DNA of 64,000 bases from a candidate division WOR-3 bacterium. Lineage in GTDB: Bacteria > Hydrothermota > Tepidihabitantia > Tepidihabitantales > Tepidihabitantaceae. A program made the position numbers and the translations under genes. Positions within the stretch are counted from its first letter, which is position 1; each line of letters opens with the position of its first letter. Below are positions 31,903-56,845 of this stretch, piece by piece. The stretch is from contig JABLXZ010000001.1 in the NCBI GenBank assembly GCA_013177935.1, positions 35,794 to 99,793 of the forward strand. The letters run 5' to 3'. Below the pieces are notes generated by a model, which worked only from the letters and a program-made list of their open reading frames with translations, was not told the DNA's origin and ran no database searches.

Positions 31903-33207
31903 CCGGATACGGGCGGTAAGGGATACGGTTTTACCGCTGTTTAAGTCCCGAACCCGGGCGATGATGAGATACTCACCGGGCTTCAAGTCCATCGTGTGCA
32001 GCCGTTCGACCGCGGTGCCAGTTGTGCCGGTACCAGCAATAAAACGGGTTGGTGTCGGGATGACCACCGCCTGTTTTGTAGCGAGGTCCATAATTTCATA
32101 GGTTGCCTCAATCCGATGCTGGTTCAGCGAATCTACGGTTAGGTGGTAAATTTCGTAAAGCAGGTAGCAGGTGCTGCCGGTCTTGATTTCCAGTGGTAAC
32201 AAGGGGACAACCCGGCGCCAGTCACCGCGTTCAAACTGAGGGCTCTGAAAGGTTGAGTCAACCAGGGTGTAAAAGATGATGTCAGAACAGGGTTGGGTGC
32301 GTCGGAGATAGTCGATGAGGTTGAGTTCCTTATTGATTTCTGCCCGGTTTTTACCGTCAAGGGTTGTGGCGGTGGCGGTTACCGAGTAGATGTCAACGGG
32401 TAAGATGAGTGTCTGGCGGCCCACGACAGAGGATACTTGCGAGTCCGGAGTACAGCCAAACCAGCCTTTGCTGACGGTAGAGTAACGCCGCGAGTTCAGT
32501 TTCAATTCAATGTAGAACAGGTTTTGTTTACCCCAAACCAAAGCCGGATCGTTACTGGCAATCCCGTAATGGATTTCAACCACAACCGAATCGTTGTGCT
32601 GACTGAGCCGGTAAAGCGCGAGGGCAAAATCAAGGGGACGATAGTCGGGCGGTGGTGGTGGCGGTGGTTTGCCGTAATCAACCGGTTCCAGCGCGGGGGG
32701 AAACCAGTTTCTACCAAAGCGGGACTGTCCAACCTGACGGAAACCGGTGCCGGTTTTCACGAAGTCAATTTGAATGCCCAGTGAATCGTAAGTCCAGATT
32801 TCTGCCGGATTGACAAAAATCGTACCGGAATCGGTGGTTAAAGGCTTTGGCGTGTACTCTTCGCGCCGGGGCGCACCGTAGCGGATATAGGTGATAACCC
32901 GTTCGTCGTTGAGCAGGTCAATTGAACCAAACAGTTCTTTAGCCTTGTTTGCCCGGGCGAGGTAAATTGCGTGCTCGGTTCCGGAGCGGTTTTGCCAGAA
33001 CCAGTTCCGGTAATCAGCCCGGTCCGAAGAAGAGGCAAGGGTCAGGTACTGTTTTGCCGCATCCGGGTCAAGGGCTTTGAGAATCAAATATTCCAGTTTT
33101 TCTTCGGGGTTGAGCAGGTCGGCACGGGATAGGGTTTTGAACTGGCCACAGAACGAGCCAAGGAAGATGGTAAAGAACAGCGGTGCCCGGTAATGGAAAC
33201 GGTGCAC
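31879..33207 (-). CDS. GWxTD-like domain protein (secreted)
   Basis: 442 aa with a signal-like N-terminus. DRADYRNWFWQNR ... NDERVITYIRYGAPRREE resembles the FW..RDP / TDRG.iYI.YG.P core of GWxTD proteins. Call made by eye only. Confidence 0.45.
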   Translation of the reverse strand: MHRFHYRAPLFFTIFLGSFCGQFKTLSRADLLNPEEKLEYLILKALDPDAAKQYLTLASSSDRADYRNWFWQNRSGTEHAIYLARANKAKELFGSIDLLNDERVITYIRYGAPRREEYTPKPLTTDSGTIFVNPAEIWTYDSLGIQIDFVKTGTGFRQVGQSRFGRNWFPPALEPVDYGKPPPPPPPDYRPLDFALALYRLSQHNDSVVVEIHYGIASNDPALVWGKQNLFYIELKLNSRRYSTVSKGWFGCTPDSQVSSVVGRQTLILPVDIYSVTATATTLDGKNRAEINKELNLIDYLRRTQPCSDIIFYTLVDSTFQSPQFERGDWRRVVPLLPLEIKTGSTCYLLYEIYHLTVDSLNQHRIEATYEIMDLATKQAVVIPTPTRFIAGTGTTGTAVERLHTMDLKPGEYLIIARVRDLNSGKTVSLTARIRLKPDRTH

Positions 33208-35861: not shown

Positions 35862-36416
35862 TCAGGTGGTAGATAATGGCGTGGTGGTTTTTTCGGCGAG
35901 GTTCCAGCCCAGTTCAATCGCTTTCGCATTGATGTCAATAAACTGTTTCGGCACACGGCTGGCAACGGTCTTTTTCAGGGATTCGAGTGTAACGAGGCCG
36001 GTGATGCGTGCCACAGCGCCAACGGTAACGATGTTGGTAAAAAGCTCTCTACCCAGTTCCTGACGGGCGGTTTCGGAAAGAGGCAGGCAGACCGTTTTCG
36101 GGTGAGGACACTCGTGCACATAAAAGCGGTCGATGATTGCCATTCCCCGGACCTTTAAGTCGCTCAGGTACTTTTCCACCGCCGGCTGACTCAAACAGAC
36201 AAGAAAGTCCAGTTTTCGACATTTTGGGAAAAGGATTGGCCCATCCGAGATGATGACATCGGCTTTGGAAGCACCGCCGCGTGCCTCAGGTCCGTAACTC
36301 TGCGTCTGGACAACCTGCCAGCCTTCGTGTACGCCAGCGGCTTCGGCAAAGACCACGCTGGCAAGAATTACACCCTGGCCTCCGGTTCCGGCAAAACGAA
36401 TTTCAATCTTCTTCAT
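35862..36416 (-). CDS. 2-oxoacid:ferredoxin oxidoreductase, gamma subunit (operon 1)
   Basis: 184 aa. RFAGTGGQGVILAS...QSYGPEARGGAS is the OFOR gamma signature. Confidence 0.88.
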   Translation of the reverse strand: MKKIEIRFAGTGGQGVILASVVFAEAAGVHEGWQVVQTQSYGPEARGGASKADVIISDGPILFPKCRKLDFLVCLSQPAVEKYLSDLKVRGMAIIDRFYVHECPHPKTVCLPLSETARQELGRELFTNIVTVGAVARITGLVTLESLKKTVASRVPKQFIDINAKAIELGWNLAEKTTTPLSTT

Positions 36417-37240
36417 TTTCCTTTGGAGCGTTCCCGAACCTCTTCGTAAAGTTGCGTATAGGGCGCAATTTCTTGCTGGTCGTGCAGGACACCGATAACG
36501 AATTTGTCTTTCTGATGCCAGGGGTCGGTAACTTTACTGACATCAACAGCGCGAGTCCGCAGCCACTCCAGCATCTGCACCGCATCACCGATACCCTGAT
36601 ACCGGCCATAGAAAGTCGGGCACTGGCTGATAACTTCAACGACGCTGAACCCGGTTTTTTTGAGCGCCAGTTCGAGCATCTTCTTTAAGTGAGCAACATG
36701 GAAGGTGGTGCTGCGGGCGACAAACATTGCACCTGCTGCCCGGGCAAGAAAACAGACATCAAAACTGCGCTCGACATTGCCAAAGGGTGCGGTTGCAGCC
36801 CGTTCGTGTGTTGGGGTAGTGGGTGAGTACTGACCCCCGGTCATCGCATAGGTGAAGTTGTTGACGACAATTACGGTAATGTCAAGATTGCGCCGGGCGG
36901 CATGGATGAAGTGATTGCCGCCGATTGCCATAATGTCGCCGTCGCCGCCAATCACGACCACCTTCAGTTCGGGTTTTGCCAGTTTTACGCCGGTTGCTGC
37001 AGGCAGGGCTCTGCCGTGCAGGGTATGAAAGGTGTCGCAGTCCAGATAGCCCGGCACGCGGGAAGAGCAACCGATTCCCGAGACAACGCACAGTTCATCC
37101 TGTTTTATACCCAGTTCGAGAAAAGCCCGCACCATCGTTGCCATCGTAGTACCGATGCCGCAGCCCGGACAGAGGATATGGGGAAACCTTTCATCAAGCC
37201 GAAAGTATTCAAGGAATCGGTCGTCTTTCAGTTCAATCAT
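36413..37240 (-). CDS. 2-oxoacid:ferredoxin oxidoreductase, beta (TPP-binding) subunit (operon 1)
   Basis: 275 aa. CPGCG, SGIGCSSR, GGDGD..AIGGNH and NNFTYAMTGGQ motifs. Confidence 0.9.
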   Translation of the reverse strand: MIELKDDRFLEYFRLDERFPHILCPGCGIGTTMATMVRAFLELGIKQDELCVVSGIGCSSRVPGYLDCDTFHTLHGRALPAATGVKLAKPELKVVVIGGDGDIMAIGGNHFIHAARRNLDITVIVVNNFTYAMTGGQYSPTTPTHERAATAPFGNVERSFDVCFLARAAGAMFVARSTTFHVAHLKKMLELALKKTGFSVVEVISQCPTFYGRYQGIGDAVQMLEWLRTRAVDVSKVTDPWHQKDKFVIGVLHDQQEIAPYTQLYEEVRERSKGK

Positions 37241-38343
37241 AAGTGGGCAATAATCTCCTCCGGGGTGAGCATCTCACCATCGTAGCGCTGGACCGAAACC
37301 ACCGGGACCTGCAGACTTACGGTGCGTTCCACTTCCCGGTAAAGTTGTCCCTGATTCATTTCCGGAACAATCACCCGGCGCGCACTGCGCAAAAGGGCGA
37401 TGAGTCTTTCGTTCGGAAAGGGCCAGACCATCCGGAGCCGAACAATGCCAACCCGGCGGCCCGTCTTAAGTTCGAACTGGCGTTTTGCCTCCATTCCGGC
37501 ACGGGCAGCACTGCCGTAACAGACGATTACCGTTTCCGAGCCGATGTCTTCGTAATAGATGTCCCAGAGCCAGGAGCGGTTCTGCTCAATTTTGTTGCGG
37601 AGCCGGTCCAGGTTCCATTTGATAATCTCCGGGTCATCAGTGGGAAATCCGTCTTTACGATGGGTTAAGCCGGTGAGATGAATGCGGTAACCTTCCCCGA
37701 AACTGGCAATGGGCGCATCGTAATTGTTGCTGTCATCGTAATGGTAGTACTGGTTGGGCGCCGGTTTAGGTTTGTCCGGCTGCCAGATTTTAACCGTTTC
37801 GGGTAATTCAACCACCTCCCGCATATGACCCACGATTTCGTCCATCAACACGATAACCGGAATCCGTAACCTTTCGGAGATGTTGACCGCCTCAACCGTT
37901 AAGTCAAAACATTCCCTAACACTCCAGGGACAGAGGGCGACAATCGGATGGTCGCCGTGGGTACCAAAGCGCGCCTGCATCACATCCGCCTGGGAGGTGC
38001 GGGTTGGTGTGCCGGTTGCCGGTCCGCCCCGCATCACATTGACAATGATACAGGGCAGTTCTGCCATTATTGAATAGCCGATTCCTTCCTGCATTAAAGA
38101 AAATCCCGGTCCGGAGGTGGCGGTCATCGCCTTGACACCAGCCGCGGTGGCACCATTCATACAGCAGATAGAACCGATTTCGTCTTCCATCTGGATAAAA
38201 GTCCCACCGACCCGCGGTAGTTCCCGGGAAAGGTATTCGGCGATTTCGGTGGAAGGGGTAATGGGATAGCCGGCAAAGAAGCGCACGCCGGCGCGGATGG
38301 CACCGATGGCACAGGCTTCGTTACCGGATAGTAACTGCTTCAT
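37237..38343 (-). CDS. 2-oxoacid:ferredoxin oxidoreductase, alpha subunit (operon 1)
   Basis: MKQLLSGNEACAIGAIRAGVRFFAGYPITPSTEI...ATSGPGFSLMQE. ATG 38343 forms an ATGA overlap with the delta stop; the ORF-track start at 38421 lies inside the delta gene. Confidence 0.88.
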   Translation of the reverse strand: MKQLLSGNEACAIGAIRAGVRFFAGYPITPSTEIAEYLSRELPRVGGTFIQMEDEIGSICCMNGATAAGVKAMTATSGPGFSLMQEGIGYSIMAELPCIIVNVMRGGPATGTPTRTSQADVMQARFGTHGDHPIVALCPWSVRECFDLTVEAVNISERLRIPVIVLMDEIVGHMREVVELPETVKIWQPDKPKPAPNQYYHYDDSNNYDAPIASFGEGYRIHLTGLTHRKDGFPTDDPEIIKWNLDRLRNKIEQNRSWLWDIYYEDIGSETVIVCYGSAARAGMEAKRQFELKTGRRVGIVRLRMVWPFPNERLIALLRSARRVIVPEMNQGQLYREVERTVSLQVPVVSVQRYDGEMLTPEEIIAHL

Positions 38344-38591
38344 TCTTGCTTTCTTTTTGCCGGGGTGACAAAAATCGCCAAATCCGGGCAGCGCAGTTCG
38401 CACAACCGGCAACCGATGCACCGTTCCGGATGGGCAACCGTTACTTTGAATCGTTCGTCAAGGTCAAGGGTTTGCGTCGGGCAGAAGGCGACGCAGATGC
38501 GGCAGCCTTTACAGAAGTGCTTTAGCAATCGGTGGCGATGTCCTTTAGGTCCGACAACCTCAACCGGTTCTTCAAGGAGAAACTTCTTCAT
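38340..38591 (-). CDS. 2-oxoacid:ferredoxin oxidoreductase, delta (2x[4Fe-4S] ferredoxin) subunit (operon 1)
   Basis: 83 aa from ATG 38591. CKGCRICVAFCP and CIGCRLCELRCP motifs. Confidence 0.8.
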   Translation of the reverse strand: MKKFLLEEPVEVVGPKGHRHRLLKHFCKGCRICVAFCPTQTLDLDERFKVTVAHPERCIGCRLCELRCPDLAIFVTPAKRKQE

Positions 38592-38595
38592 TGGT

Positions 38596-39078
38596 TCAAT
38601 AGGGTTTGCCGATGCCCTGCTGGCGCCACAGTTCAAAAATCGCGCGGCATTTTTCGGCTAAAAAGTCCGGGACGATTTCAATTTTGTCCTGGCCGATGGT
38701 TTTCATCTGCTGGGCGGAGATTTCCAGTTCGTTGAAGCCGGCAGCCCGGGCATCGCTAATCCGCGCCCCGAAGACAATTTTGCCGATTCGTGCCCAGTGG
38801 GCAATTGAGTAGCACATTGGACAGGGTTCGCAGGTGCAGAACATAACAGCATCGGTCAAATGAATCGTTTTCAACCGGCGACAAGCCTGACGGATGGCAT
38901 TGACCTCGGCATGGGCGGATGGGTCGTTGTCCTGCCACACGGTGTTGTGCGCAGCGGCGATAATCTGACCGTCTTTAACAATGACGCAGCCAAAAGGTGC
39001 CTGACCGGAGTTGATTCCGATGCGGGCTTGTTCAATCGCCCTTTCCATCGCCTCGTAGTCCGATACCCTTTCGCTCAT
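38596..39078 (-). CDS. guaD: CDA-fold guanine deaminase (GuaD-like nucleoside/nucleobase deaminase)
   Basis: 160 aa. PFGCVIVKDGQIIA..NDPSAHAEVNAIR..CTCEPCPMCYSIAHWARIGKIVFGA..AAGF closely follows the B. subtilis GuaD pattern. Stop lies 4 nt before the OFOR delta start. Confidence 0.7.
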   Translation of the reverse strand: MSERVSDYEAMERAIEQARIGINSGQAPFGCVIVKDGQIIAAAHNTVWQDNDPSAHAEVNAIRQACRRLKTIHLTDAVMFCTCEPCPMCYSIAHWARIGKIVFGARISDARAAGFNELEISAQQMKTIGQDKIEIVPDFLAEKCRAIFELWRQQGIGKPY

Positions 39079-39667: not shown

Positions 39668-39695
39668 TTGACCGATGGATTTTAGCTTTTATAAT
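39668..39695 (+). promoter_or_regulatory. Sigma70-like promoter of the OFOR-GltD-Hdr operon
   Basis: TTGACC (39668-39673), 16 nt, TATAAT (39690-39695). The ORF-track ATG 39675 lies inside this promoter, so the real start is ATG 39711. Confidence 0.6.
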
Positions 39696-39710
39696 CACAT
39701 TCTTATTTCA

Positions 39711-40007
39711 ATGAAACTCTGGCGCAAACCATTAGATGCGGACCAAAAGAAACCGCCCCGGGGCGTAGTTCACATTTTGGTTGAGCGGTGTAAGGGGTGC
39801 GGATTCTGTATTACCTATTGTCCAAAACAGGTGCTTGAAGCATCAACCGATTTCAATCGTCGGGGTTATCACCCACCGGTTGTTAAATACCCGGAGCGCT
39901 GTGTTAACTGTGGACTCTGCACCGCAATCTGTGCCGAGTTTGCCATCTGGACAACACCGGCACCGGAAGACGAAAACACCATTTCAGGAGGAAAGGTTGA
40001 AAAATAA
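39711..40007 (+). CDS. 2-oxoacid:ferredoxin oxidoreductase, delta (ferredoxin) subunit (operon 2)
   Basis: MKLWRKPLD...CKGCGFCITYCP ... CVNCGLCTAICAEFAI (2x[4Fe-4S]). Confidence 0.8.
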   Translation: MKLWRKPLDADQKKPPRGVVHILVERCKGCGFCITYCPKQVLEASTDFNRRGYHPPVVKYPERCVNCGLCTAICAEFAIWTTPAPEDENTISGGKVEK

Positions 40008-41151
40008 CGGTGTTGTGCTGACCGGCGTGCACTTTCTTGATGGCGACCATGCCTGTGCTGAGGGCGCAATTGCTGCCGGGTGTCGGTTTTTTGCCGGGTA
40101 TCCAATAACCCCTTCCACTGAAATCGCCGAACGCATCGCCCAGCGTTTTCCTCTGGTGGGCGGTACTTTTATCCAGATGGAGGATGAACTGGCATCAATC
40201 GCAGCGGTTTTAGGGGCAGCCTGGGCCGGTACCAAGGCGATGACTGTTACTTCGGGTCCGGGGTTTTCGTTGATGCAGGAGAATATCGGACTCGGGGTGA
40301 TGACCGAAACGCCTTGCGTGGTGGTTGATGTCCAGCGGGGCGGTCCTTCAACCGGGCTACCTACCTTAACCGGGCAACAGGATATGATGCAAGCCCGCTG
40401 GGGTTCGCATGGCGATTATGAGATAATCGCCCTTTCACCCGCCTCACCCCAGGAGTGTTTTGATTTGACGATTACCTGTTTCAATCTTGCCGAGCAGTTT
40501 CGGGTGCCGGTCCTGTTTATGATGGACGAATGCGTGGGTCATATGACCGAAAAGGTGGTGATTCCTGAGCCGGAAAAGATAAAGACGGTGCCCAGGCGGT
40601 GGTATCGCGGTCCCAAAGAGCAGTATCGACCCTTTAAGCCAGCAGATGATGGGGTACCGATGATGGTACGGGCAGGAAAGGATTATCGGATTCACATTAC
40701 CGGATTGACGCACGATGAAAGGGGTTATCCGGTGATTAATGCCGAATGCCAGAACTGGTGCGTGACTCATCTGGTTGACAAAATCCGCAAAAACAGTGAA
40801 AAGATTATTATGGTTGATGAGTACCAGCTGGAAGATGCCGAGGTGGTGGTGGTCGCTTACGGGATAAGCGCCCGGGTTGCGTTCAAGGCGATTGAAGACG
40901 CCCGTGCCCGCGGTGTGAAGGTTGGGATGTTACGGCTGATAACCGTCTGGCCCTTTCCCGAACGCCGGATTAAACAACTGGCGGAGCAAGTAAAGGCGTT
41001 TATTATGCCCGAGATAAATCTGGGTCAGGTGTATCTCGAGTTGCAGCGGGTGGTTGCCGACCGCGCCCGGACAAGACATGTTCCCCATTGTGGCGGTTGG
41101 GTTCATGACCCGAAAGCCATCTTTGAGGCGATAATGGAGAGTGCCCGATGA
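39997..41151 (+). CDS. 2-oxoacid:ferredoxin oxidoreductase, alpha subunit (operon 2)
   Basis: TTG 39997 after GGAGGA. (M)KNNGVVLTGVHFLDGDHACAEGAIAAGCRFFAGYPITPSTEI...VTSGPGFSLMQE. The ORF-track start at 39781 overlaps the delta gene. Confidence 0.85.
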   Translation: MKNNGVVLTGVHFLDGDHACAEGAIAAGCRFFAGYPITPSTEIAERIAQRFPLVGGTFIQMEDELASIAAVLGAAWAGTKAMTVTSGPGFSLMQENIGLGVMTETPCVVVDVQRGGPSTGLPTLTGQQDMMQARWGSHGDYEIIALSPASPQECFDLTITCFNLAEQFRVPVLFMMDECVGHMTEKVVIPEPEKIKTVPRRWYRGPKEQYRPFKPADDGVPMMVRAGKDYRIHITGLTHDERGYPVINAECQNWCVTHLVDKIRKNSEKIIMVDEYQLEDAEVVVVAYGISARVAFKAIEDARARGVKVGMLRLITVWPFPERRIKQLAEQVKAFIMPEINLGQVYLELQRVVADRARTRHVPHCGGWVHDPKAIFEAIMESAR

Positions 41152-42038
41152 GCGAAGCAACTGCCAATATCTTTGGTCTTAACCAGCATCCGCTTGACGA
41201 CCTGTTGCGGGTGGACCGGATTCCCCATATCTGGTGTCCGACCTGTGGTCTGGGTATTGTTTTGAACTCTTTTTTGACCGCGGTACGGGAAAGTGCTATT
41301 CCCCGCGAGGACCTGGTTGTGGTGTCGGGTATCGGTTGCACAGGCCGTGCTGCCGGATATGTGAATCTGGACTCGTTTCATACCACCCATGGCCGGGCGA
41401 TACCGTTTGCGATTGGCTTAAAACTGGGTAATCCGAAATTAAAAGTGGTGATTATCTCCGGCGATGGCGATTTGGTATCGATTGGTGGTAATCACCTGAT
41501 TCATGCGGCACGCCGTAATATGGATTTGACGGTCATCTGTGTGAACAACTTCAACTATGCGATGACCGGCGGTCAGTTTGGACCAACCACGCCCCAGGGC
41601 GCTAAGTTGACCACGGCACCTTATGGCAGTTTTGAGCACCCGTTTAACATCCCGTTTCTTGTTGACTCCTGCGGCGCAACCTATGTCGCACGCTGGACCG
41701 TGCTCCATGTCCGGCAGATGACTCAGGCTTTCAAAGAGGCGCTGATGCACGCCGGGTTCAGTTTTGTTGAGGTGATTTCGCCCTGTCCGACCGTTTATGG
41801 CCGGCGCAATCAGTTAGGTTCCGGGCTGGAGATTGTAAAATACTATCAGGAAAAGTCGGTGGTTAAGAACGATATCGACACCCGGGAGTGCGAAATAAAC
41901 TATCAGGGCCCAATTGTTGTTGGAAGGTTTGTCCAGAAGCGAAAACCCACCTATCTTGAGGCAATGAACGATTTTTTGCGTTCCAGTGTCGGCGAGAAGT
42001 TCGTTCCCTATCAAGGACCAATGGAAGATGGAGATTAA
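41148..42038 (+). CDS. 2-oxoacid:ferredoxin oxidoreductase, beta (TPP-binding) subunit (operon 2)
   Basis: 296 aa. CPTCG, SGIGCTGR, SGDGDLVSIGGNH and NNFNYAMTGGQ motifs. ATGA overlap with alpha. Confidence 0.9.
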   Translation: MSEATANIFGLNQHPLDDLLRVDRIPHIWCPTCGLGIVLNSFLTAVRESAIPREDLVVVSGIGCTGRAAGYVNLDSFHTTHGRAIPFAIGLKLGNPKLKVVIISGDGDLVSIGGNHLIHAARRNMDLTVICVNNFNYAMTGGQFGPTTPQGAKLTTAPYGSFEHPFNIPFLVDSCGATYVARWTVLHVRQMTQAFKEALMHAGFSFVEVISPCPTVYGRRNQLGSGLEIVKYYQEKSVVKNDIDTRECEINYQGPIVVGRFVQKRKPTYLEAMNDFLRSSVGEKFVPYQGPMEDGD

Positions 42039-42570
42039 ACTTTCCGGGTTTGGCGGTCAGGGTATCATAATGATGGGGATGGTTTTAGGCCGGGCTGCTA
42101 CCCTGTATGATAACAAATATGCGACCCTGACCCAGAGTTTCGGGCCCGAAGCGAGAGGCGGTGCCTGCTCAGCGCAGTTGATTATCTCTGAAGAGCGGGT
42201 GCTTTATCCTTATTTAACTGCGCCCGATATTTTAGTGGCGATGTCCCAGGAGGCGTATGAGAAGTTTGAGCCGACATTAAAGGATGGGGGGATTCTCATC
42301 TGGGAGGAAAACCTGGTACGCCCTCATAACCATTTTGGTCGGGTTAAAGAGTTTACCATCCCGGCAACGAGGATTGCGGAAGGTCTGGGGAATCGGATGT
42401 TTGCCAATATGGTGATGCTCGGGTTTGTGGTCGCGGTGACCGGTGTTGTTCCCAAAGAGGCGCTAATCAAGGCGGTTCAGGACACACTGCCCGCGCGACT
42501 GCTTGAGAAAAACCTCGTGGCGCTGGAAAAGGGGTATGAGCTTGGGCAGGAAAAGAAGAAGTCGGTATGA
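42028..42570 (+). CDS. 2-oxoacid:ferredoxin oxidoreductase, gamma subunit (operon 2)
   Basis: MEIKLSGFGGQGIIMMG...QSFGPEARGGAC. ATG 42028 overlaps the end of beta. Confidence 0.85.
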   Translation: MEIKLSGFGGQGIIMMGMVLGRAATLYDNKYATLTQSFGPEARGGACSAQLIISEERVLYPYLTAPDILVAMSQEAYEKFEPTLKDGGILIWEENLVRPHNHFGRVKEFTIPATRIAEGLGNRMFANMVMLGFVVAVTGVVPKEALIKAVQDTLPARLLEKNLVALEKGYELGQEKKKSV

Positions 42571-44423
42571 AGGCTAAGGATGGTTTGACTCTTAAAGAGG
42601 CGTTGCGCTCAAAAGTGGCGAGCCTGAAAATCAGGGACCGGGAGTTTCAAATCGTATTGGCGCCCGAATCACCCTGTCGAGTTGCCTGTCCGGCTGGTGT
42701 TAATGTCAAGGCTTATGTCGGTTTGATTGCCGCGGGCAAGTTTGAGCAGGCGCTGGAGGTGGTACGGCAAACCAATCCTTTACCTGGAATTTGTGGCAGG
42801 GTGTGTACCCATCCCTGTGAGCAGGAGTGCCGCCGCGCCGAACTTGATGAACCGGTGGCAATTCGCGCCCTGAAACGATTTATTGCCGATTATGCGGTCA
42901 ATCAACCCCGGGCGGTATTACCCGCAGATACAGTTAAAAGACCGCAGCGGGTTGCGATAGTTGGTGCCGGTCCCGCCGGTTTGACCGCAGCAAATGACCT
43001 AATCCGCTTGGGGTATCAGGTGACGATTTTTGAGGCGCAGGAAAAACCGGGCGGGATGCTCATCTGGGGGATTCCGCCTTTCCGTTTGCCCCGACCAGTG
43101 ATTGAGCAGGAGATTGATTCGGTTCTTGGTTTAGGGGTGGAACTGTTTACCCGAACCAAAATCGATGAACCGGCACGGCTTCTCAAAGACGGTTTTGCCG
43201 CGGTATTTTATGCTCCGGGTTGCCAGAAAAGTTTGACGCTTGGTCGGCCGCTGGAGGATGAACTGTTCGGGGTGATAGATGCCCTTTCCTTTTTGAGAAA
43301 GGCGTTTACCGGTGAGATGAAAACTCTGTCCGGTCGGGTTCTGGTGATTGGGGGTGGAAATTCGGCGATTGATGCGGCACGGGTCGCAAAGAGGCTCGGT
43401 GCCGAAGAGGTCTGGATTGTTTATCGCCGGACCCGAAGGGAAATGCCGGCTGGTGAAGAGGAACTGTCTGAAGCAGAAGCCGAGAATATCCGCATCGAAT
43501 ATCTTACCCAGCCGGTCGAGTTTATTCATAAAGAAGGAAAGGTTACCGGATTGCGTTGTGTGCGTAATACACTGGGCGCGGCTGATGAGTCGGGCAGAAG
43601 AAAACCGGTGCCGATTCCGGGTTCGGAATTTGTAATTAATGCTGATTGGGTTATTACCGCACTGGGTCAGAAGGTGGAGAAGGATATTGACCATTTGCCA
43701 TCTGGTGTTTTTGTTGGTGGCGATGCCGCAGGCGGTCCGGCAACGGTGATTGACGCCATTGCCAGTGGCCATCGGGGCGCAAGTGCGATTCACAAGTTCA
43801 TCAGCGGCGCCGAACCAATGACAAAAGTTTCCGAGGTACAACTGGAGATTCAAATGCCGGTGCTAACTGCGGTGCCCAGGAGCCGGGTGCGACCGCGGCA
43901 ACTGGTACCGGAAAAGCGCAACATTTTTGCCGAGGTGGAGGAACCCTTGACACCAGCAGAGGCGATACAGGAGGCAGAGCGCTGTTTGCGCTGCGGCTTT
44001 TGTGGTGAATGTGTTCGGTGCCATCGGACCTGCCCGAAACACCAGGTGGCAATTCGGACTGATGACTTTACTGAAACAACATTTCTCCGAATCCACTCGC
44101 TCGAAACAGTTTTTCCTGACGGAGTGGAAGAGCTACCGGTGACGATAAAATTTAATGATGAAAAAGGGGAGCGGTACATCCCGGGCGTAATACAACCTTT
44201 GATTGTCAGGGTAGAAAAGGAGTTGTGCCGGGGTTGTGGAAGGTGCGTTGATGCTTGCCCGCACGAGGCGATTACGCGCGAGGAGTGGTATTCTGGTATT
44301 CAGGTGGCGGTAGTTGATAGCCGGCGCTGTCGGGGATGTGGCAACTGTTTGACCGTTTGTCCGAGCGGTGCATTGCAGAGTTATCTCAAATTTGTGCCGG
44401 TAGGTTATTATAACCAGCGATGA
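42567..44423 (+). CDS. GltD/NfnB/SudA-like NAD(P)H-binding FAD iron-sulfur oxidoreductase with C-terminal 2x[4Fe-4S] ferredoxin domains
   Basis: 618 aa. NPLPGICGRVCTHPCEQECRR (GltD N-terminal cluster motif), VAIVGAGPAGLTAA, VIGGGNSAIDAAR, then CRGCGRCVDACP and CRGCGNCLTVCP. ATGA overlaps on both sides. Confidence 0.8.
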   Translation: MKAKDGLTLKEALRSKVASLKIRDREFQIVLAPESPCRVACPAGVNVKAYVGLIAAGKFEQALEVVRQTNPLPGICGRVCTHPCEQECRRAELDEPVAIRALKRFIADYAVNQPRAVLPADTVKRPQRVAIVGAGPAGLTAANDLIRLGYQVTIFEAQEKPGGMLIWGIPPFRLPRPVIEQEIDSVLGLGVELFTRTKIDEPARLLKDGFAAVFYAPGCQKSLTLGRPLEDELFGVIDALSFLRKAFTGEMKTLSGRVLVIGGGNSAIDAARVAKRLGAEEVWIVYRRTRREMPAGEEELSEAEAENIRIEYLTQPVEFIHKEGKVTGLRCVRNTLGAADESGRRKPVPIPGSEFVINADWVITALGQKVEKDIDHLPSGVFVGGDAAGGPATVIDAIASGHRGASAIHKFISGAEPMTKVSEVQLEIQMPVLTAVPRSRVRPRQLVPEKRNIFAEVEEPLTPAEAIQEAERCLRCGFCGECVRCHRTCPKHQVAIRTDDFTETTFLRIHSLETVFPDGVEELPVTIKFNDEKGERYIPGVIQPLIVRVEKELCRGCGRCVDACPHEAITREEWYSGIQVAVVDSRRCRGCGNCLTVCPSGALQSYLKFVPVGYYNQR

Positions 44424-45961
44424 GCCGAAGTTTACCTCCAATCAGAAATTTTGCCTTTGTCTGTGAACGGGTGTCTGTACTGGTGCCGGAAGAGGTTTTG
44501 GTAAAAAACGGATTTGGATATCGCACGGTAAACTGCATTGGCCAGGTCGGGACCGGTTCGATTTTACAGGCGTTTGAGTACGGCGCTGACCAGGTTGTTC
44601 TATTGGGTTGCCCGGAACAGGAGTGCCGGCATGGGATTGGGGCACAAAATGCCCGAAAACAGGTAGAAACCAGCCGGCAATTACTAAACCTTATGGGGTT
44701 TAATCCTGAAGCGGTGCGTTTTGTCCCGGTGTCAGAGCGAAGTGAGCACGATGATTTGTTTAGCGTCCGGTTAGCGAGCAACAGGTCAAGCGGGCAGAAA
44801 GTAGCAGTTGGTATCGAACCGGAAAATGATGACAATTTTGCGCCCGCCGGAACAAAGAGACAAACCGATTTTGTCTGTATTGAGTGCGGCAGGTGTAGCG
44901 GTGTGTGTCCGGTTGCCCGCACCGGGCTCGGTTTTTCACCCCGGCGGTTGATGCAGAAGGCGGGGACCGAAGATGCACCATTAAAGACCAGGGCTCTTTA
45001 CGCCTGTCTGGGATGCGATTTGTGTAAAACGGTTTGTCCTTCAGGAAAGAGCATCGCCGAAGAGATATTGCGGTTGCGGGTGATTGCCTTTCAGCAGGGT
45101 ACGCAGCCTGTAATGGCACACGATGGGGTTGTGCAAACGCTTATCCGGATGATGGCAAAAACAACTTTGCCCCAGAACCGAAGGGAATGGATTAGTTCAG
45201 ACCTGCGGGTTGCTGATAGAGGGGAAATTGCCCTCTGGACCGGATGCGCGCCTTACTTTGATGTCCTGTTTAAGGAGATGGAAGTGAATCAGGTGGGCAC
45301 ATTGCGCAATGCGGTGCGGATTATGAACCGGCTCGGGATTGAGCCGGTAATTCTGGCGGATGAGCGGTGCTGTGGCCACGATTTGCTATGGCTGGGCGAT
45401 GTCCGCACCGTAAAGAAACTTGCGCGGCACAATTTAACTCAATTGCAGGATGCCGGGGTAAAAGAGGTTGTTTTTCTGTGTCCGGAATGTTTGCGGACAT
45501 TCAAACTGGACTACCCGCGACTTGCCGGAACACAGGGTGCGGAGTTGAAATTAAAGCATATCAGTGAGTTTCTTTTTGAACACGGGTTTAAGCCTGCTGG
45601 TAATGGAACGCAGATACGGGTAACCTATCATGACCCGTGCCGGTTGAGCCGACATCTTGGGGTCGAAGATGCTCCGCGCCAGTTGATTGGTCAGGTCAAT
45701 GGGGTTGAGTTGGTTGAGATGGCGCACAATCGCAGCGAGGGTTTGTGTTGTGGTGGGACATCGTGGCTGGAGTGCGGGGCGGCAGTGAAATTGCTGCAAG
45801 ACCGACGCCTGCAGGAGTGGCAGGCGGTAAAGGCGGAAACTCTCATTACCGGCTGCGGCAAGTGTGAAATTCATCTGCGCTGCGCCCAGATGAGTCGGGG
45901 AAATAATAATAAGGCGCAAAAGATTGTTAATCTGATTGATTTTTTTGCAGATAAGGAGTAG
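44420..45961 (+). CDS. Fusion protein: MvhD/FlpD-like domain + HdrC-like 2x[4Fe-4S] + HdrB-like double CCG domain
   Basis: 513 aa. N-terminal ..VNCIGQVGTGSILQAFEYGADQVVLLGCPEQECRH (MvhD-like). CIECGRCSGVCP and CLGCDLCKTVCP (HdrC-like). CCGHD..CPEC and DPCRLSRHLG..CCGG..CGKC (two CCG domains). Confidence 0.8.
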   Translation: MSRSLPPIRNFAFVCERVSVLVPEEVLVKNGFGYRTVNCIGQVGTGSILQAFEYGADQVVLLGCPEQECRHGIGAQNARKQVETSRQLLNLMGFNPEAVRFVPVSERSEHDDLFSVRLASNRSSGQKVAVGIEPENDDNFAPAGTKRQTDFVCIECGRCSGVCPVARTGLGFSPRRLMQKAGTEDAPLKTRALYACLGCDLCKTVCPSGKSIAEEILRLRVIAFQQGTQPVMAHDGVVQTLIRMMAKTTLPQNRREWISSDLRVADRGEIALWTGCAPYFDVLFKEMEVNQVGTLRNAVRIMNRLGIEPVILADERCCGHDLLWLGDVRTVKKLARHNLTQLQDAGVKEVVFLCPECLRTFKLDYPRLAGTQGAELKLKHISEFLFEHGFKPAGNGTQIRVTYHDPCRLSRHLGVEDAPRQLIGQVNGVELVEMAHNRSEGLCCGGTSWLECGAAVKLLQDRRLQEWQAVKAETLITGCGKCEIHLRCAQMSRGNNNKAQKIVNLIDFFADKE

Positions 45962-45970
45962 AATAGCACG

Positions 45971-48523
45971 ATGAGCCAAGAGACGCGAATCGGCGTGTTT
46001 GTCTGCCGCTGCGGCACCAACATCGCCGGCACCGTCAATGTCGAAGCGGTTGCAGATTACGCCCGAACCTTACCCGATGTGGTTTATGCGGTAACCAGCC
46101 TTTACAACTGCTCGGAACCAGGACAGAAGGAGATTCAAAAGGCGATTACCGAGTATAAACTCAACCGGGTGGTGGTGGCGGCATGTACACCACGGATGCA
46201 CGAACCCACTTTTCGTGCCTGTGTGGCACAGGCGGGATTGAACCCCTTTCTGATGGAGATGGTGAACATCCGCGAGGGGTGTTCCTGGGTTCACGCCCTG
46301 GAGCCGAAGCGGGCAACGAAAAAGGCGTGCCATCTTGTCCGGATGGCGGTGGCAAAAGCCCGGGCGCTGAAACCGCTCAACCCGCGCCGTTTTCCCTTAA
46401 AGGATGCGGTGCTGGTGATTGGCGGCGGTGTTGCCGGTATTCAGGCGAGCCTTGACCTGGCAGATGCGGGTCATCAGGTGTATCTGGTGGAGCGTCAGCC
46501 TTCGCTCGGGGGGTTGATGGCGCAGTTGCACAAAACCTATCCGACGATGGACTGTGCGATATGAATACTGGCGCCCAAGATGGCGGATGTCGGTCGGCAT
46601 CCGAAAATCAAACTCCTGACCCTTGCCGAGGTTAAGGAAGTTGCGGGTCATGTTGGTGACTTTAAGGTAACAGTTCGGCAGAAAGCACGATTTGTTGATG
46701 AGCGGGAGTGCACCGCGTGTGGTGATTGCGCCAAGGTTTGCCCGCAACTGGTGCCGGACGAGTTTAACTTAGGGCTGGCGCTAAGGAAGGCGATTTATCA
46801 GCCGTTCCCGCAGGCGATTCCGGCGGCATATGTACTTAATCCTGCTGACTGTCTGGGCTTAAATCCAATTGCCTGCGGCAAATGTGCGCAGGCGTGCGAA
46901 AAGAAGTGCATCGATTTGAACGCTCAGGATAAAGAGTTGACCTTTGAGGTGGGTGCAATCATCGTTGCCACCGGTATGGAGCCGTTTGACCCATTGTCTC
47001 GTACCGAGTTTGGCTATGGCAGGGCAACAAATGTGATTACGGCAATGGAGTTTGAGCGGCTGGCATCGTCTGGCGGACCAACAGGCGGTGAACTCATCCG
47101 GTTCAGTGACCGCCGGCGCCCGAACAGTATTGCCTTTATTCAGTGTGTCGGCTCGCGCTGTGCGCAACAGGGCACGCCCTACTGCAGTAACATCTGCTGT
47201 ATGAACACGATTAAAGACAGTCTGGTGCTCAAGGAGCATTACCCGGATATGGATATCAAGGTTTTCTACATTGACCTGCGTGCCTTCAGCAAAGGGTTTG
47301 AGGAGATGCTGTGGCGTTCCAAGCGGCTTGGCGTCAAGTACATCCGCGGGATTCCAGGGGAAGTGGTTGAGGACAAGGAGACCGGGAATTTAAAACTTTA
47401 TGTGGAAAACACCGAAACCGGCAAGGTTGAGGAACATATTGCAGAAATGGTAGTCCTGGCGACCGGAGTCAAACCCAGGGTTGAGACCAAACCGATTCAG
47501 CAACTGATGTCGTTACAACTTCACCCTGAAGGTTTCCTGCTTGAGGCACATCCCAAACTGCAACCGGTTGATTCGCCCGTGCGCGGGGTTTTTTATGCCG
47601 GTTGTGCGGAAGGACCAAAGGATGTCAAGGATTCGGTGACACAGGCAAGTGCCGCAGCAGGGCGGGCAGCGCGGCTTCTGGCACAGGGGTCCCTCGCAGC
47701 AGAACCAAATACGGTTGAGGTCATTACTGACAGGTGCCGTGCCTGCGGTATGTGCGCGCCGGTCTGTACATTCAAGGCGGTGGAGTGGCAGCGCGGTGCG
47801 CCGGCAAAGGCGATTGATGCGGTCTGTGCCGGTTGTGGCAACTGTGCTGCCGAGTGCCGGTTTGAGGCGATTGAGGCGCATCAGTTCACGGACGAACAGA
47901 TTTTCGCCCAGATTGAGGCGGCGCTGGCAGAAGAGCCCGAGTCGAAAGCGATTGTGTTTGCCTGCCACTGGTGCTCCTATGCGGCAGCGGATACGGTTGG
48001 ACTGGGCCGGTCTCAATACCCACCAACTCAGGTTTTAATTCGGACGATGTGCAGCGCCCGGGTTGCCGAAAAGTTTGTGCTCAAGGCGTTTGAGCTCGGG
48101 GCACCGGTTGTTCTTGTCTCCGGCTGTCACTATGCGGACTGTCACTACCTCAATGCCAATCGGCAAACCCAGCGCCGGGTTGAAAAACTGTGGGACAAAC
48201 TTGAGGCATGGGGAATCAGACCGGAAAGGTTGCAACTGGAATGGATTTCCGCGGCACAGGCGCCCCGGTTTGTCAAGACTATGGAGGAATTGGAACGGCT
48301 CCGGGCAACGGTGACACGAGAAGAGATTGAACAGACAAAGCAGATTCTTGCCAACCCGCCCAAGGTAGCCTTACGGGTTGAGCCCAAGACCGCGGGCGAA
48401 ATGCCGTTTGTCTGCCTGCGCTGTGGCAAAGAGTCAAAACATCACTGGATACCAAATCAGCCGCAAGAGCGCTCCTGTCCCCATTGCGAAAGCAACAGCC
48501 TTCGGTTGCTGTTAATCCATTAA
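45971..48523 (+). CDS. hdrA: Heterodisulfide reductase subunit A-like flavoprotein, selenocysteine-containing (TGA 46562-46564 = Sec198), with C-terminal MvhD-like domain and zinc ribbon
   Basis: Track ORFs 45971-46564 and 46580-48523 are in the same frame, separated by a single TGA. Read-through gives [22 protein letters not shown], where HdrA proteins have DC..C.L.PKM. Also [15 protein letters not shown], inserted and C-terminal ferredoxin CxxCxxCxxxC motifs, an MvhD-like [22 protein letters not shown], and a terminal CLRCG..CPHC. Confidence 0.85.
46584..46603 (+). promoter_or_regulatory. Candidate bacterial SECIS stem-loop
   Basis: CGGATG (46584-46589) pairs with CATCCG (46598-46603), with an 8-nt loop TCGGTCGG. 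It begins about 20 nt after the in-frame UGA. Confidence 0.5.
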
Positions 48524-48611: not shown

Positions 48612-49067
48612 ATGAAGGGCAATAAGATAGCCGCAGTCTTTTTGGCGCTCCTTATCCTTGGTTGTAGCAAAGCACCGCATAAGGTGGAAAATAAGGTGGT
48701 GGTCACCAAAACCCAAACAACCGAATCCTTACCTGATATCCCCCCAGAACTTAAATATCCTAATGCCAGTGTACTTAACTTTTCCGCCTCAGAAGACGAA
48801 AACGGATTTAGCCAGTTTTATATCTTCCGGACAACAGATTCCTTGCCCGTTGTCAAGAAATTTTATGATGAGCGTGTAGAAAACCTGTTTCAGGATGTTG
48901 AGTGCAGCAGTTCATTTTCTGACCAGGTAATAGTGAACAGTTATCGGAAAATGAAAGAAGATGAAAAGGTGACTGAAGGGTTGCAATGCATCCTGGTCAA
49001 AGAGAAAGATGGTACCCTCGGCACCTTGATATACTGGCAGCGGCAGGACAAAAAGGCTGAACTGTAA
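48612..49067 (+). CDS. Hypothetical lipoprotein (paralog of 39132-39590)
   Basis: AAGGAG lies 7 nt before ATG 48612 (ORF-track start 48597). Lipobox LLILGC. Contains the LKYPNAS...FRTTD...VKKFY block. Confidence 0.6.
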   Translation: MKGNKIAAVFLALLILGCSKAPHKVENKVVVTKTQTTESLPDIPPELKYPNASVLNFSASEDENGFSQFYIFRTTDSLPVVKKFYDERVENLFQDVECSSSFSDQVIVNSYRKMKEDEKVTEGLQCILVKEKDGTLGTLIYWQRQDKKAEL

Positions 49068-51871: not shown

Positions 51872-52735
51872 TTAGGTTAACTTTGCCTTAAGTTTTTCTG
51901 CCAGTTGTTCGGGTTCGTAGATGACCTCAATGCCAGCGGACTGAAACGCCTGAATCTTCTCGGCTGCGGTACCGGAACCGGCAGATATGATGGCGCCGGC
52001 ATGTCCCATCCTTTTATCCGGGGGTGCGGTTTGGCCCGCGATGAAGCCGAACACCGGTTTTGTCACATACTGCCGGACAAACTGTGCCGCCTTTTCTTCA
52101 TCACTGCCACCAATCTCGCCGACGATGACTATCGCTCTGGTTTCAGGGTCGTCCTGAAACATCTTTAAACAGTCAATAAAGTTGGTGCCGATTACCGGGT
52201 CGCCACCGATGCCGATTACGGTTGATTGACCGAATTCGCCGGTGTTGGCGGCGATCTCATAGGTCAGGGTTCCAGAACGGGAAACGATGCCGACCGGTCC
52301 AGGCCGAAATGCGGCAGCGGGCATTATTCCGACTTTTGCCTTTCCGGGCGAGATTGCACCGGGGCAGTTTGGACCAACAATCCGGACGCCACGGGTTTTT
52401 GCGACCGCAATCGCCTTGATTGCATCGAGTACCGGTACCCCTTCGGTCACACAGACGATTAGTTTTACGCCGGAGAAGACCGCTTCGAGTAGCGCATCGC
52501 CGGCAAAGTTGGCAGGTACAAAGATGATTGATGCATCGGCACCGGTTGCCCGGACCGCTTCGGCAACCGAGTTGAAAACCGGTATGCCGTCAATCTCCTG
52601 ACCGCCTTTGCCCGGGGTTACACCGCCGACCACCTGGGTGCCGTACTCTTTCATCAATCGGGCGTGAAAGGCGCCGTCTCTGCCGGTTATGCCCTGAACA
52701 ATCAGCCGGGTGTTCTGGTCAATCAGGATGCTCAT
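51872..52735 (-). CDS. sucD: Succinyl-CoA synthetase (ADP-forming), alpha subunit
   Basis: 287 aa. [29 protein letters not shown] and GHAGAII motifs. Confidence 0.93.
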
Positions 52736-53871
52736 CTTGCCTCCTTTGCCTTGGCAACTGCCAGTTTGACCGCTTCACTCATCCCGGTGGCACTATAGAC
52801 CGGGCTATCAGCGAGCAGGGCACACGCCTTTTCGGCGTTGGTGCCAACAAGACGGGCAACAATCGGCACTTTGATGTCGGCTTTCTTTATTGCAGCGATG
52901 AGCCCCTGAGCGATGTCGTCACAGCGGGTGATGCCGCCGAAGATGTTGACGAGAATCGCTTTGACATTGGGGTCGGAGAGGATGATGCGCATTGCGGTTA
53001 TCATCTTTTCGGGCGATGAGGAGCCACCGACATCAAGGAAGTTTGCCGGTTCACCACCATACCGTTTGATTAAGTCCATCGTCGCCATTGCCAGGCCCGC
53101 ACCGTTGACAATGCAGCCAACATTGCCGGAGAGTTTGATGTAAGAAAGACCCGCGGCTTTGGCTTCAATCTCTTTGGGCTCTTCACCTTCCGGGTCGCGC
53201 AACGCCTCATTTTCGGGATGGCGGAAAAGGGCGTTGTCGTCAAAGTTGATTTTCGCATCCAGGGCGAGCAGTTTGCCATCATCGGTTAACACCAGCGGGT
53301 TGATTTCAACAAGCGAGCAGTCGCGCTCGACAAATATCTGGTAAAGTTTCTGGCAGATGGTGGTGAAGGCGCTGGTCAGTTTCAGGTCACCGAACAAAGA
53401 AAAACCGATGGTGCGGGTTTGGAAGGGCAGGATGCCGAGCAAGGGGTCGATTTCTGCCTTGAGAATTTTTTCCGGGCTGGTTTTCGCAACCTCTTCAATC
53501 TCAACGCCACCCGCGGCAGAGGCGATGAGAACCGGTTGCCGGGCAGAACGGTCAACCGTAATACCGAGGTAGAATTCGGATTTGATTGGGACGCATTCGG
53601 AGACGAGGAGTTTTGTGACCTTCAAGCCTTTGATTGTCATACCGAGGATTTTTTCGGCGGTGGGCAGAACATCTTCAAACCGGTCAACCCGTTTGACACC
53701 ACCGGCTTTACCGCGACCACCAACCAGGACCTGGGCTTTGAGTACCGCCGGAACACCAACCGCAATTGATGCCTGTTTTGCTTCGTTTGGTGATTTTACC
53801 ATCTGCTCGCGCGGTGTGGGAATTCCCGCCCGGGCAAAAATCTGTTTAGCCTGATATTCATGGATTTTCAT
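52732..53871 (-). CDS. sucC: Succinyl-CoA synthetase, beta subunit
   Basis: [18 protein letters not shown] from ATG 53871 (ORF-track start 53907). ..[10 protein letters not shown].., [14 protein letters not shown]-type overlap with sucD. Confidence 0.92.
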
Positions 53872-53928
53872 ACAGGTTAAATCTAACGAAAACCGGCGCA
53901 GGGTCAAGCGGGTGTTTTGGGCTTTGCG

Positions 53929-55494: not shown

Positions 55495-55675
55495 TAATTG
55501 AACTCCTGGAACGGGTTCAGAATAGAGAAGATATTGATTTCTGTCAAGTTGAAGTGCGGGGAGGCATTGAAGAGGATGTTTTAATTGACTCAGAACAATT
55601 TGGGTGTATAATCGGACTCGTGCATCGTAAATTGATAGTAAATTGTCTGAGAAGGTCTATTTTCCAGGAGGCACA

Positions 55676-56836: not shown

Positions 56837-56845
56837 GGAGGAGTG

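Follow-up and report, generated by a model that had tools for sequence, protein, structure and literature searches.

The stretch of DNA analysed here (the window, 64,000 nucleotides from a candidate division WOR-3 bacterium) carries seven genes on its plus strand, at 39711-48523, that join a four-subunit 2-oxoacid:ferredoxin oxidoreductase (OFOR) to a module of the heterodisulfide reductase (Hdr) type. In order, they encode the OFOR delta, alpha, beta and gamma subunits, an iron-sulfur flavoprotein resembling NfnB and GltD, an MvhD-HdrC-HdrB fusion protein (hereafter HdrCB), and an HdrA with a selenocysteine codon. We propose, with moderate confidence, that the seven proteins work together as one functional unit. 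It would be a reversible flavin-based bifurcating or confurcating system of the HdrA type that is linked to NADPH, with a dedicated OFOR in place of the free ferredoxin pool as the low-potential partner. All of the parts are of known kinds, and what may have gone undescribed is the OFOR as a conserved partner of an Hdr module.

In the open reading frame (ORF) map of the 64-kb window, the seven genes overlap or nearly abut. The delta stop codon (40007) lies beyond the TTG start of alpha (39997), which is preceded by GGAGG; alpha and beta have an ATGA in common (41148-41151); and the in-frame ATG of gamma (42028), preceded by AAGGA, lies upstream of the beta stop (42038). Further ATGA sequences are shared by gamma and the GltD-like gene (42567-42570) and by the GltD-like gene and HdrCB (44420-44423). 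HdrCB ends with a TAG at 45959-45961, directly after an AAGGAG (45953-45958), and hdrA starts at ATG 45971 and stays open to 48523 across a single in-frame TGA (46562-46564). An earlier interpretation of this DNA, made from its letters alone (the sequence-only reading), had listed the same seven ORFs, junctions and domains. The ORF map and the Pfam and NCBIfam searches reproduced them, and the motifs it quoted are found in the translations.

The start of the delta gene had been placed 36 nt too far upstream. The ATG used there (39675) sits within the promoter and is missing from L001, one of two relatives aligned over the region, and ATG 39711 is conserved; the start is therefore assigned to 39711, which gives a protein of 98 aa. 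The promoter itself, a sigma-70-like TTGACC-N16-TATAAT (39668-39695, plus strand), matches the consensus at 11 of 12 positions and is the top promoter-like site of the region. Its -35 and -10 hexamers are both kept in L009, the other relative, and also in L001, which is more distant and has diverged in the remaining spacer. The site named in the sequence-only reading is thus upheld, although promoter-like sites as a class occur near the number expected by chance (12 observed versus 8.6 +/- 2.8). ATG 39711 follows the conserved -10 hexamer by about 15 nt, and no Shine-Dalgarno sequence lies between them (39696-39713), unlike the internal genes of the operon, which carry GGAGG or AAGGAG sites. 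For the first gene, translation probably starts on an mRNA with no leader or almost none. No convincing terminator was found 3' of hdrA, and terminator-like matches occur at chance frequency (16 found versus 15.2 expected).

The first four genes have the features of an OFOR of the OorDABC/KorDABC type. Delta (39711-40007, 98 aa) is a ferredoxin-like protein (Pfam Fer4_7/Fer4) with two CxxCxxCxxxC motifs, CKGCGFCITYCP and CVNCGLCTAICA, for two [4Fe-4S] clusters. Its homologs measure 93-103 aa, and its top NCBIfam matches, OGOR_delta and OorD, stay under the cutoff (57 versus 125). Alpha (39997-41151, 384 aa, TTG start) comprises the Pfam domains POR_N (239 bits) and PFOR_II (77 bits) and passes the curated model NF006412 for the alpha subunit of 2-oxoacid:acceptor oxidoreductases (580 bits, cutoff 411). 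Its closest PDB entries are 1yd7, 8ys5 (2-oxoglutarate synthase alpha) and 6n2n, and a homolog of likewise 384 aa is 96% identical. Beta (41148-42038, 296 aa) has a TPP_enzyme_C domain with the thiamine pyrophosphate (TPP)-binding motif GDGD...NN (ISGDGD...NNFNY), and 2-oxoglutarate:ferredoxin oxidoreductase beta is its top NCBIfam match, at 250 bits under a cutoff of 364. Gamma (42028-42570, 180 aa) carries a POR domain and has homologs of 177-184 aa. Scores with the equivalog models of the Pad proteins stay far under the cutoffs (PadG 85 versus 700, PadI 45 versus 700, PadE 60 versus 300). To judge from the nearest relatives and from succinyl-CoA synthetase genes (sucCD) that recur nearby, the substrate couple would most likely be 2-oxoglutarate/succinyl-CoA.

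The fifth gene (42567-44423, plus strand) encodes a protein of 618 aa with an N-terminal Fer4_20 domain for two [4Fe-4S] clusters and a Pyr_redox_2 domain. The FAD site is formed by GAGPAG and an NADPH-type site by GGGNSA followed by VYRRTRREMPA, which completes the set of features of an NfnB subunit. An extra motif of four cysteines and a C-terminal domain for two further [4Fe-4S] clusters are present as well. The top PDB sequence matches, aligned over residues 35-598, are 9bov_A and 8oh5_C; the latter, which bears a different name in the PDB, we take to be StnC of the Sporomusa Stn transhydrogenase. They are followed by 9n5u (named NfnA), by 4ylf_B (275 bits), presumably the NfnB of Thermotoga NfnAB and likewise named otherwise in the PDB, and by 5jca_L (named NfnI alpha, 243 bits). 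Neither the operon nor the syntenic loci contain an NfnA partner, a PyrK-like protein with FAD and [2Fe-2S], and the system is therefore not an Nfn.

The sixth gene (44420-45961, plus strand, 513 aa) combines an MvhD-like FlpD domain ([2Fe-2S]), an HdrC-like Fer4_8 domain with two [4Fe-4S] clusters, and two CCG domains. Nineteen aligned homologs all keep the four MvhD cysteines, the two HdrC-type CxxCxxCxxxC motifs (C153/156/159/163 and C196/199/202/206) and the two complete C...CC...CxxC motifs (C276/317/318/354/357 and C407/443/444/479/482) without change. An HdrC-type domain with two complete CCG motifs for non-cubane clusters is the composition of HdrBC or of a soluble HdrD-like protein. 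The curated HdrB, HdrC and HdrD models are not passed (TfrB scores best, with 157 bits versus 385, and the HdrC models reach 33-47 versus 160-350). The protein is best read as one that works like HdrCB, yet stands outside every named equivalog.

The last gene (45971-48523, plus strand) encodes an HdrA of 850 aa that belongs to the HdrA2, or Ia, type and passes the NCBIfam model HdrA2 (NF040770) with 1126 bits against a cutoff of 1100. Its residues 3-651 align end to end with residues 2-649 of 5odc_A, a bifurcating HdrA of known crystal structure (737 bits), and every domain is present: the N-terminal cluster domain, an FAD domain resembling thioredoxin reductase (TrxR), and the inserted and the C-terminal domains with two [4Fe-4S] clusters each. 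An MvhD domain is fused behind them (FlpD at 661-775; residues 655-774 align with MvhD, 5odc_D), and the C terminus forms a zinc ribbon with CxxC...CxxC. The in-frame TGA (46562-46564) aligns to Cys197 of 5odc_A and would be read as selenocysteine (Sec198). The domain matches and this alignment bear out the earlier description of HdrA as a selenoprotein with extra ferredoxin domains, an MvhD domain and a zinc ribbon.

The same column holds TGA in the HdrA genes of WOR-3, Zixibacteriota, Planctomycetota, Acidobacteria, Calditrichota, Deltaproteobacteria and others, and TGC or TGT in most Chloroflexota and in archaea. Starting 20 nt past the UGA, the hairpin GGAUGUC-GGUC-GGCAUCC (46585-46602, plus strand) appears in the minimum free energy fold and resembles a selenocysteine insertion sequence (SECIS). 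Its nucleotides are kept in 16 loci from several phyla, codon third positions included, with one compensatory pair, U-A to C-G, and we take it as a putative bacterial SECIS element. Searches with Rfam (gathering threshold) and ARAGORN gave zero matches in the window, the hairpin included.

Conservation of the arrangement was analyzed by searching one genome per GTDB species with the HdrCB alignment. The best 80 of 549 relatives were kept and compared with the seven window proteins by tblastn; these loci are the nearest relatives of a WOR-3 query and not a random sample. Of the 80, 52 have at least 6.5 kb of sequence upstream of HdrCB and are assessable. The OFOR genes delta-alpha-beta-gamma lie directly upstream on the same strand at 39 of the 52, or at 40 if L077, with an insertion between, is counted, and nine more loci that are truncated also show the linkage. 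At most linked loci, the first aligned residue of the following gene falls between -24 and +170 nt from the gamma stop codon. By their record titles, the linked loci carry about ten phylum-level labels: WOR-3, Ignavibacteria, Zixibacteriota, Planctomycetota (Phycisphaerae/Planctomycetales), Acidobacteria, Calditrichota, Eisenbacteria, Gemmatimonadota, Chloroflexota (Dehalococcoidia/Anaerolineae) and Deltaproteobacteria. The linkage is found in addition on a Marinimicrobia contig and on a complete WOR-3 chromosome of 3.26 Mb.

The closest record, a WOR-3 metagenome-assembled genome (MAG; L009), is 87-97% identical in amino acid sequence over the operon. The gene order is kept from 92% down to 43% HdrCB identity within unrelated flanks. 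On contigs whose HdrCB homologs are 75%, 55%, 52%, 51% and 43% identical, all seven genes recur in unchanged order, and HdrA is split at the same TGA. The sequence-only reading had staked its proposal on hdr and gltD-like genes adjoining OFOR genes in other genomes, and this is what the scan of the assessable loci shows.

The linked OFORs also form a group of their own. Across phyla, the Hdr-linked alpha subunits are 60-68% identical to that of the window, whereas the paralog alpha2 encoded in the same genome reaches only 46%. A neighbour-joining tree was built from 58 alpha sequences, with six unlinked neighbouring OFORs and without characterised reference OFORs. All Hdr-linked alphas fall into one clade (bootstrap 100/100) that also includes one extra acidobacterial copy (L025_18798), and the six unlinked neighbours lie outside it; alpha2 of the window belongs to a separate clade. 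The Hdr-linked beta subunits of several phyla end in a common C-terminal tail, ...G-E/D-K-F/Y-V/K-P-Y... (in the window ...GEKFVPYQGP..., 41990-42035; compared across loci L003-L090), which the unlinked paralogs do not have. This tail could be a docking element, and is offered as a lead only. In an Anaerolineales MAG (L083, 1802-3376), the beta and gamma matches share one stop-to-stop frame, which could be a beta-gamma fusion or a sequencing artefact.

The gene between the OFOR and the Hdr genes always encodes a flavoprotein, the kind of which differs by lineage. A separate GltD-like match was obtained at 14 of the 39 linked loci. It comes from a stand-alone NfnB/GltD-like protein in WOR-3, some Zixibacteriota and Marinimicrobia, and in Chloroflexota and deltaproteobacteria from an HdrL-like protein that combines ferredoxin, GltD and the N-terminal part of HdrA. 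In most FCB and PVC genomes this slot is filled by another, large HdrA (about 1000 aa), which has two TrxR-like domains and is itself a selenoprotein with TGA at the same Cys/Sec position (L020, L024-L028, L035-L045, L051, L053, L059, L073 and L080, at ~6.6-9.9 kb and 14.2-16 kb). An extra hdrC lies 3' of hdrA at all four loci scanned for it (L035, L041, L059 and L080), at three of them together with an hdrB, and such additions of hdrC and hdrB after hdrA are seen in the PVC, Calditrichota and Gemmatimonadota versions. With the second HdrA and the extra hdrC and hdrB genes, those versions contain two HdrA and two HdrBC-type modules.

The position of MvhD varies as well. It is fused to HdrCB in the clade of the window; in Marinimicrobia (L089) it is attached C-terminally to the GltD-like protein, and elsewhere it is encoded by a separate gene delimited by real stop codons. 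Such changes of fusion partner argue for contact among the flavoprotein, MvhD and HdrCB.

The presence of an NAD(P)H flavoprotein, the FAD of HdrA, the disulfide site of HdrCB and an OFOR fits the logic of a bifurcation with three arms. In the proposed scheme, NADPH would reduce the FAD of the NfnB/GltD-like protein, whose [4Fe-4S] clusters and C-terminal ferredoxin domain would relay the electrons to the [2Fe-2S] cluster of MvhD. They would then enter HdrA at its own C-terminal ferredoxin domain and arrive at its FAD, which would split the pair. The high-potential electron would travel along the HdrC-like clusters and then the two non-cubane clusters held by the CCG domains of the HdrB-like part, and reduce a disulfide. 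The low-potential electron would exit HdrA by its inserted ferredoxin domain and reach TPP by way of OFOR delta and the [4Fe-4S] cluster of beta. The net reaction would be 2 NADPH + succinyl-CoA + CO2 + R-S-S-R' <-> 2 NADP+ + 2-oxoglutarate + CoA + 2 thiols. In reverse, the oxidation of 2-oxoglutarate (~-500 mV) and of the thiols would be confurcated onto NADP+. OFORs work at about -500 mV, and by textbook potentials the mean of this value and about -140 mV is close to the potential of NADPH (~-320 mV), so that the reaction would be plausible both ways. Because the neighbouring genes are catabolic (urocanase, methylmalonyl-CoA mutase, succinyl-CoA synthetase), we lean slightly to the oxidative, confurcating direction in this organism.

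Several lines of evidence favour a single functional unit. The genes overlap tightly behind one conserved promoter, their synteny crosses phyla, and the linked alpha subunits form a separate clade. HdrA keeps the inserted ferredoxin domain that would be the low-potential exit, HdrCB keeps both CCG motifs, and the flavoprotein its FAD and NADPH motifs. The pattern of MvhD fusions and the repeated proximity of sucCD point in the same direction. Precedents exist in the Hdr-Fmd/Fwd supercomplexes (PMC13580544, PMC13518236) and in the HdrA that feeds benzoyl-CoA reductase (PMC9304861).

Other observations weigh against this interpretation. No OFOR part was found fused to an Hdr or flavoprotein part at any of 53 loci, where ORFs running from gamma into the following gene were looked for. 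The OFOR is absent from 13 of the 52 assessable loci (Dehalococcoidales, Thermoplasmata, Methanocellales and some Desulfobacteraceae), and the trio of flavoprotein, MvhD-HdrCB and HdrA stands alone on an ENA metagenome contig taken as archaeal; since such versions exist, the OFOR is not obligatory for the flavoprotein/MvhD/HdrCB/HdrA module. Bifurcation could instead take place at the NfnB-type FAD, and the wiring would then be different. Beta, gamma and delta all score under their NCBIfam cutoffs, and the assignment to 2-oxoglutarate comes from nearest neighbours and context. No DsrC-like gene or other obvious thiol carrier is present among the scanned ORFs of the window. The evidence is genomic throughout, all carriers found are MAGs, and none of the best 120 alpha-subunit homologs comes from a cultured organism.

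For the Hdr assembly wired to an OFOR that had been suggested from the sequence alone, these data cut both ways: the synteny, the distinct OFOR clade and the fitting parts speak for it, and the lack of OFOR-Hdr fusions and the occurrence of the trio without OFOR speak against it. In the strongest form of the proposal, the seven proteins would make up one soluble supercomplex, with HdrA feeding OFOR delta directly, bypassing free ferredoxin, and NADPH (~-320 mV) driving the reductive carboxylation of succinyl-CoA to 2-oxoglutarate (~-500 mV), paid for by disulfide reduction. We advance this form tentatively, as a possibility rather than an expectation.

A rival account is that of physically separate enzymes under common regulation. 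An ordinary OFOR and a stand-alone bifurcating enzyme that uses NADPH, ferredoxin and a disulfide would then meet through soluble ferredoxin, and the operon would serve matched expression. The missing fusions and the OFOR-free sets in several lineages agree with it, as do the resemblance of OFOR delta to the standard OorD-type subunit and the retention in HdrA of the inserted ferredoxin-reducing domain, which in methanogens is used with free ferredoxin. It does not readily explain, however, why immediate adjacency persists over about ten phylum-level labels while the flanks change, or why the linked OFORs constitute a separate clade with its own beta C-terminal tail. The second, unlinked OFOR encoded next door suggests specialisation, and the operon has no separate ferredoxin gene, which we count in favour of the single unit. 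On this evidence we regard separate enzymes as an unlikely arrangement, albeit one to be taken seriously.

A linear, non-bifurcating 2-oxoacid:disulfide oxidoreductase appears quite improbable to us. Electrons would run from 2-oxoglutarate through HdrA to HdrCB, and the GltD-like protein would be a side entry or exit for NADP(H). The HdrA of the window is of the HdrA2 type, and HdrA2B2C2 has ferredoxin:CoMS-SCoB oxidoreductase activity and is fed by a ferredoxin-reducing enzyme (PMC5296606); the catabolic neighbours would also suit such a flow. Yet a drop of about 350 mV would be wasted, and the flavoprotein that is constantly placed between OFOR and Hdr, be it NfnB-like, HdrL-like or a second HdrA, would be left unexplained. 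HdrA2B2C2 itself, moreover, also bifurcates.

Fortuitous adjacency of unrelated OFOR and Hdr genes, or an artefact of assembly, deserves practically no credence, since for it speaks nothing more than that both gene families are common in anaerobes, and it is refuted by the conservation of the same order in independent JGI, ENA and NCBI assemblies from dozens of species and in the complete 3.26-Mb chromosome.

HdrA modules are known as partners of adenosine phosphosulfate reductase. They have also been described with hydrogenase, formate dehydrogenase, F420, methylene-tetrahydrofolate reductase, benzoyl-CoA reductase and Fmd/Fwd (PMC13580544, PMC13518236, PMC9304861). The system of the window shares with MvhADG-HdrABC and FdhAB-HdrABC (PDB 5odc, 7bkb) the cluster domains of HdrA, the Sec/Cys197 position, MvhD, and a disulfide site of the HdrC/HdrB type. 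It is like the Hdr-Fmd/Fwd supercomplexes in concept, in that bifurcated low-potential electrons would be handed directly to a ferredoxin-dependent enzyme of CO2 fixation (PMC13580544, PMC13518236). It differs from these methanogen complexes in its donor, an NADPH flavoprotein instead of hydrogenase or formate dehydrogenase, and in its partner, an OFOR instead of formylmethanofuran dehydrogenase. A polyferredoxin is furthermore missing, MvhD forms one protein with HdrC and HdrB, and the bacterial host is presumably unlikely to have CoM-S-S-CoB.

HdrA2B2C2 of Methanosarcina acetivorans is close in other respects (PMC5296606): its HdrA is fused to MvhD, its HdrBC partner is soluble, and the HdrA2 model is the one passed here. 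It both bifurcates and moves electrons from ferredoxin to the heterodisulfide (PMC5296606). Its donor is F420H2, however, its substrate is CoMS-SCoB, it has no GltD-like subunit and its genes are not accompanied by those of an OFOR. HdrL and type III HdrA of Desulfobacterium autotrophicum and archaea also combine HdrA and MvhD with an NAD(P)H module of the GltD type (PMC2702500, PMC12054007). There the GltD domain is inserted in or fused to HdrA, whereas in the window it is a separate protein of 618 aa, and it is an HdrL-like protein that fills the slot in the Chloroflexota and deltaproteobacterial versions of the cluster.

The 618-aa protein itself is most similar to the NfnAB and Stn/Nfn-Bfu transhydrogenases (4ylf, 5jca, 8oh5, 9bov, 9n5u), with which it shares the two [4Fe-4S] clusters, the FAD and the NADPH-type site. 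The operon differs from them in lacking an NfnA/PyrK-like partner and a BfuBC core, and the extra C-terminal iron-sulfur domains of the protein resemble the C-terminal ferredoxin domain of HdrA. Class II benzoyl-CoA reductase, BamBCDEFGHI, unites HdrA and HdrBC-like components in one complex with an enzyme of very low potential and an NAD(P)H input (PMC9304861), as the system of the window would. The catalytic partner of Bam is a tungsten enzyme as opposed to a TPP-dependent OFOR, and its input is BfuABC and not an NfnB-like protein.

Phenylglyoxylate:NAD+ oxidoreductase (PadEFGHI) and 2-oxoglutarate:NADP+ oxidoreductase (KorABC) of Aromatoleum/Azoarcus consist of an OFOR with an extra FAD/NAD(P)-binding subunit. 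They too tie a 2-oxoacid couple to pyridine nucleotides, but have no Hdr module.

No description of an OFOR-Hdr cluster was found in the full-text literature searched, in line with the sequence-only reading, which knew of no characterised assembly of this kind; an earlier mention in a review (Appel et al. 2021, BBA 1862:148379) is possible. In a survey of 181 WOR-3 genomes from 2025, korABCD and hdrABC appear as separate entries (PMC12542636). A paper on a Zixibacteria genome describes a large cluster of ferredoxin-dependent enzymes including Mvh/Hdr, PFOR and OGOR and does not propose direct coupling (PMC3903129). The OFOR is unmentioned in the papers on HdrL, type III HdrA and HdrA2B2C2 (PMC2702500, PMC12054007, PMC5296606).

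According to a study of Aquifex from 2023, the supply of low-potential reductant for the reverse tricarboxylic acid cycle 'is still unresolved' (PMC10052474). The cluster is of interest because the source of reductant for 2-oxoglutarate synthase is thus regarded, and because many abundant uncultured anaerobes carry it; WOR-3, Zixibacteriota, Marinimicrobia, Phycisphaerae and Dehalococcoidia are abundant in anoxic sediments. If the coupling is real, models of carbon and electron flow would change for many uncultured anaerobes. A supercomplex, if it exists, would be the bacterial, NADPH-fed counterpart of methanogen Hdr-Fmd and a widespread answer to the question of the reductant for 2-oxoglutarate synthase. 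The operon is a defined target of seven genes for heterologous expression and would add one more bacterial Hdr system of the thiol/disulfide kind.

The unlinked OFOR of the window, also of four subunits and of the same family, is encoded divergently about 1 kb upstream of the operon on the minus strand (35862-38636), by delta2 (38340-38636), alpha2 (37237-38421), beta2 (36413-37240) and gamma2 (35862-36416). The two are separated by genes for a tadA-like deaminase and a lipoprotein. This OFOR and the sucCD genes on the far side of the operon had escaped the sequence-only reading. An unlinked OFOR paralog is found near the Hdr-linked one also in L009, L090, L020, L025, L041, L051, L086 and several Zixibacteriota loci, and thus in several other phyla, so that such pairs of OFORs may be a conserved feature in their own right. 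On the other side of the operon, a small lipoprotein gene 3' of hdrA (48613-49067) was considered as a further member and rejected, as it is kept only in the close relatives L009 and L001.

Succinyl-CoA synthetase is encoded downstream on the minus strand (Pfam; sucC 52732-53907, sucD 51872-52735), and sucCD are close to the cluster also in the WOR-3 loci L001, L003, L007, L013-L015, L018 and L019 and in L086 of the Zixibacteriota. Directly upstream of sucC is an ORF of 521 aa (53929-55494, minus strand) that has no Pfam match and is kept beside sucCD in L001 (75% identity) and in L003 and L013 (47%). A corrinoid adenosyltransferase, MeaB and methylmalonyl-CoA mutase are encoded together at 7153-10371; with this group, sucCD and the OFORs, the window is rich in succinyl-CoA metabolism. 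In L003, methylmalonyl-CoA mutase, an epimerase-like glyoxalase and a carboxyltransferase lie just upstream of the OFOR-Hdr cluster. Among the scanned ORFs of the window there is no gene for a hydrogenase, formate dehydrogenase, Flx, MetFV or DsrC-like protein, in agreement with the earlier remark that such partners were missing.

The window further encodes urocanase and an acetyl-CoA synthetase. The ORF directly downstream of urocanase (31879-33207, minus strand, 442 aa), where a hut gene would be expected, gave zero Pfam or NCBIfam matches. At 55643-59104, two thiolase-like genes are followed by two genes of the DUF35/ChsH2 type (OB-fold and zinc ribbon), ahead of a ribosomal protein cluster, an arrangement that recalls the archaeal thiolase/HMG-CoA synthase/DUF35 complex. 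The GC skew is positive in nearly all 2-kb bins of positions 6001-64000, and the cumulative skew climbs steadily with genes on both strands, which is consistent with the plus strand being the leading strand throughout this interval.

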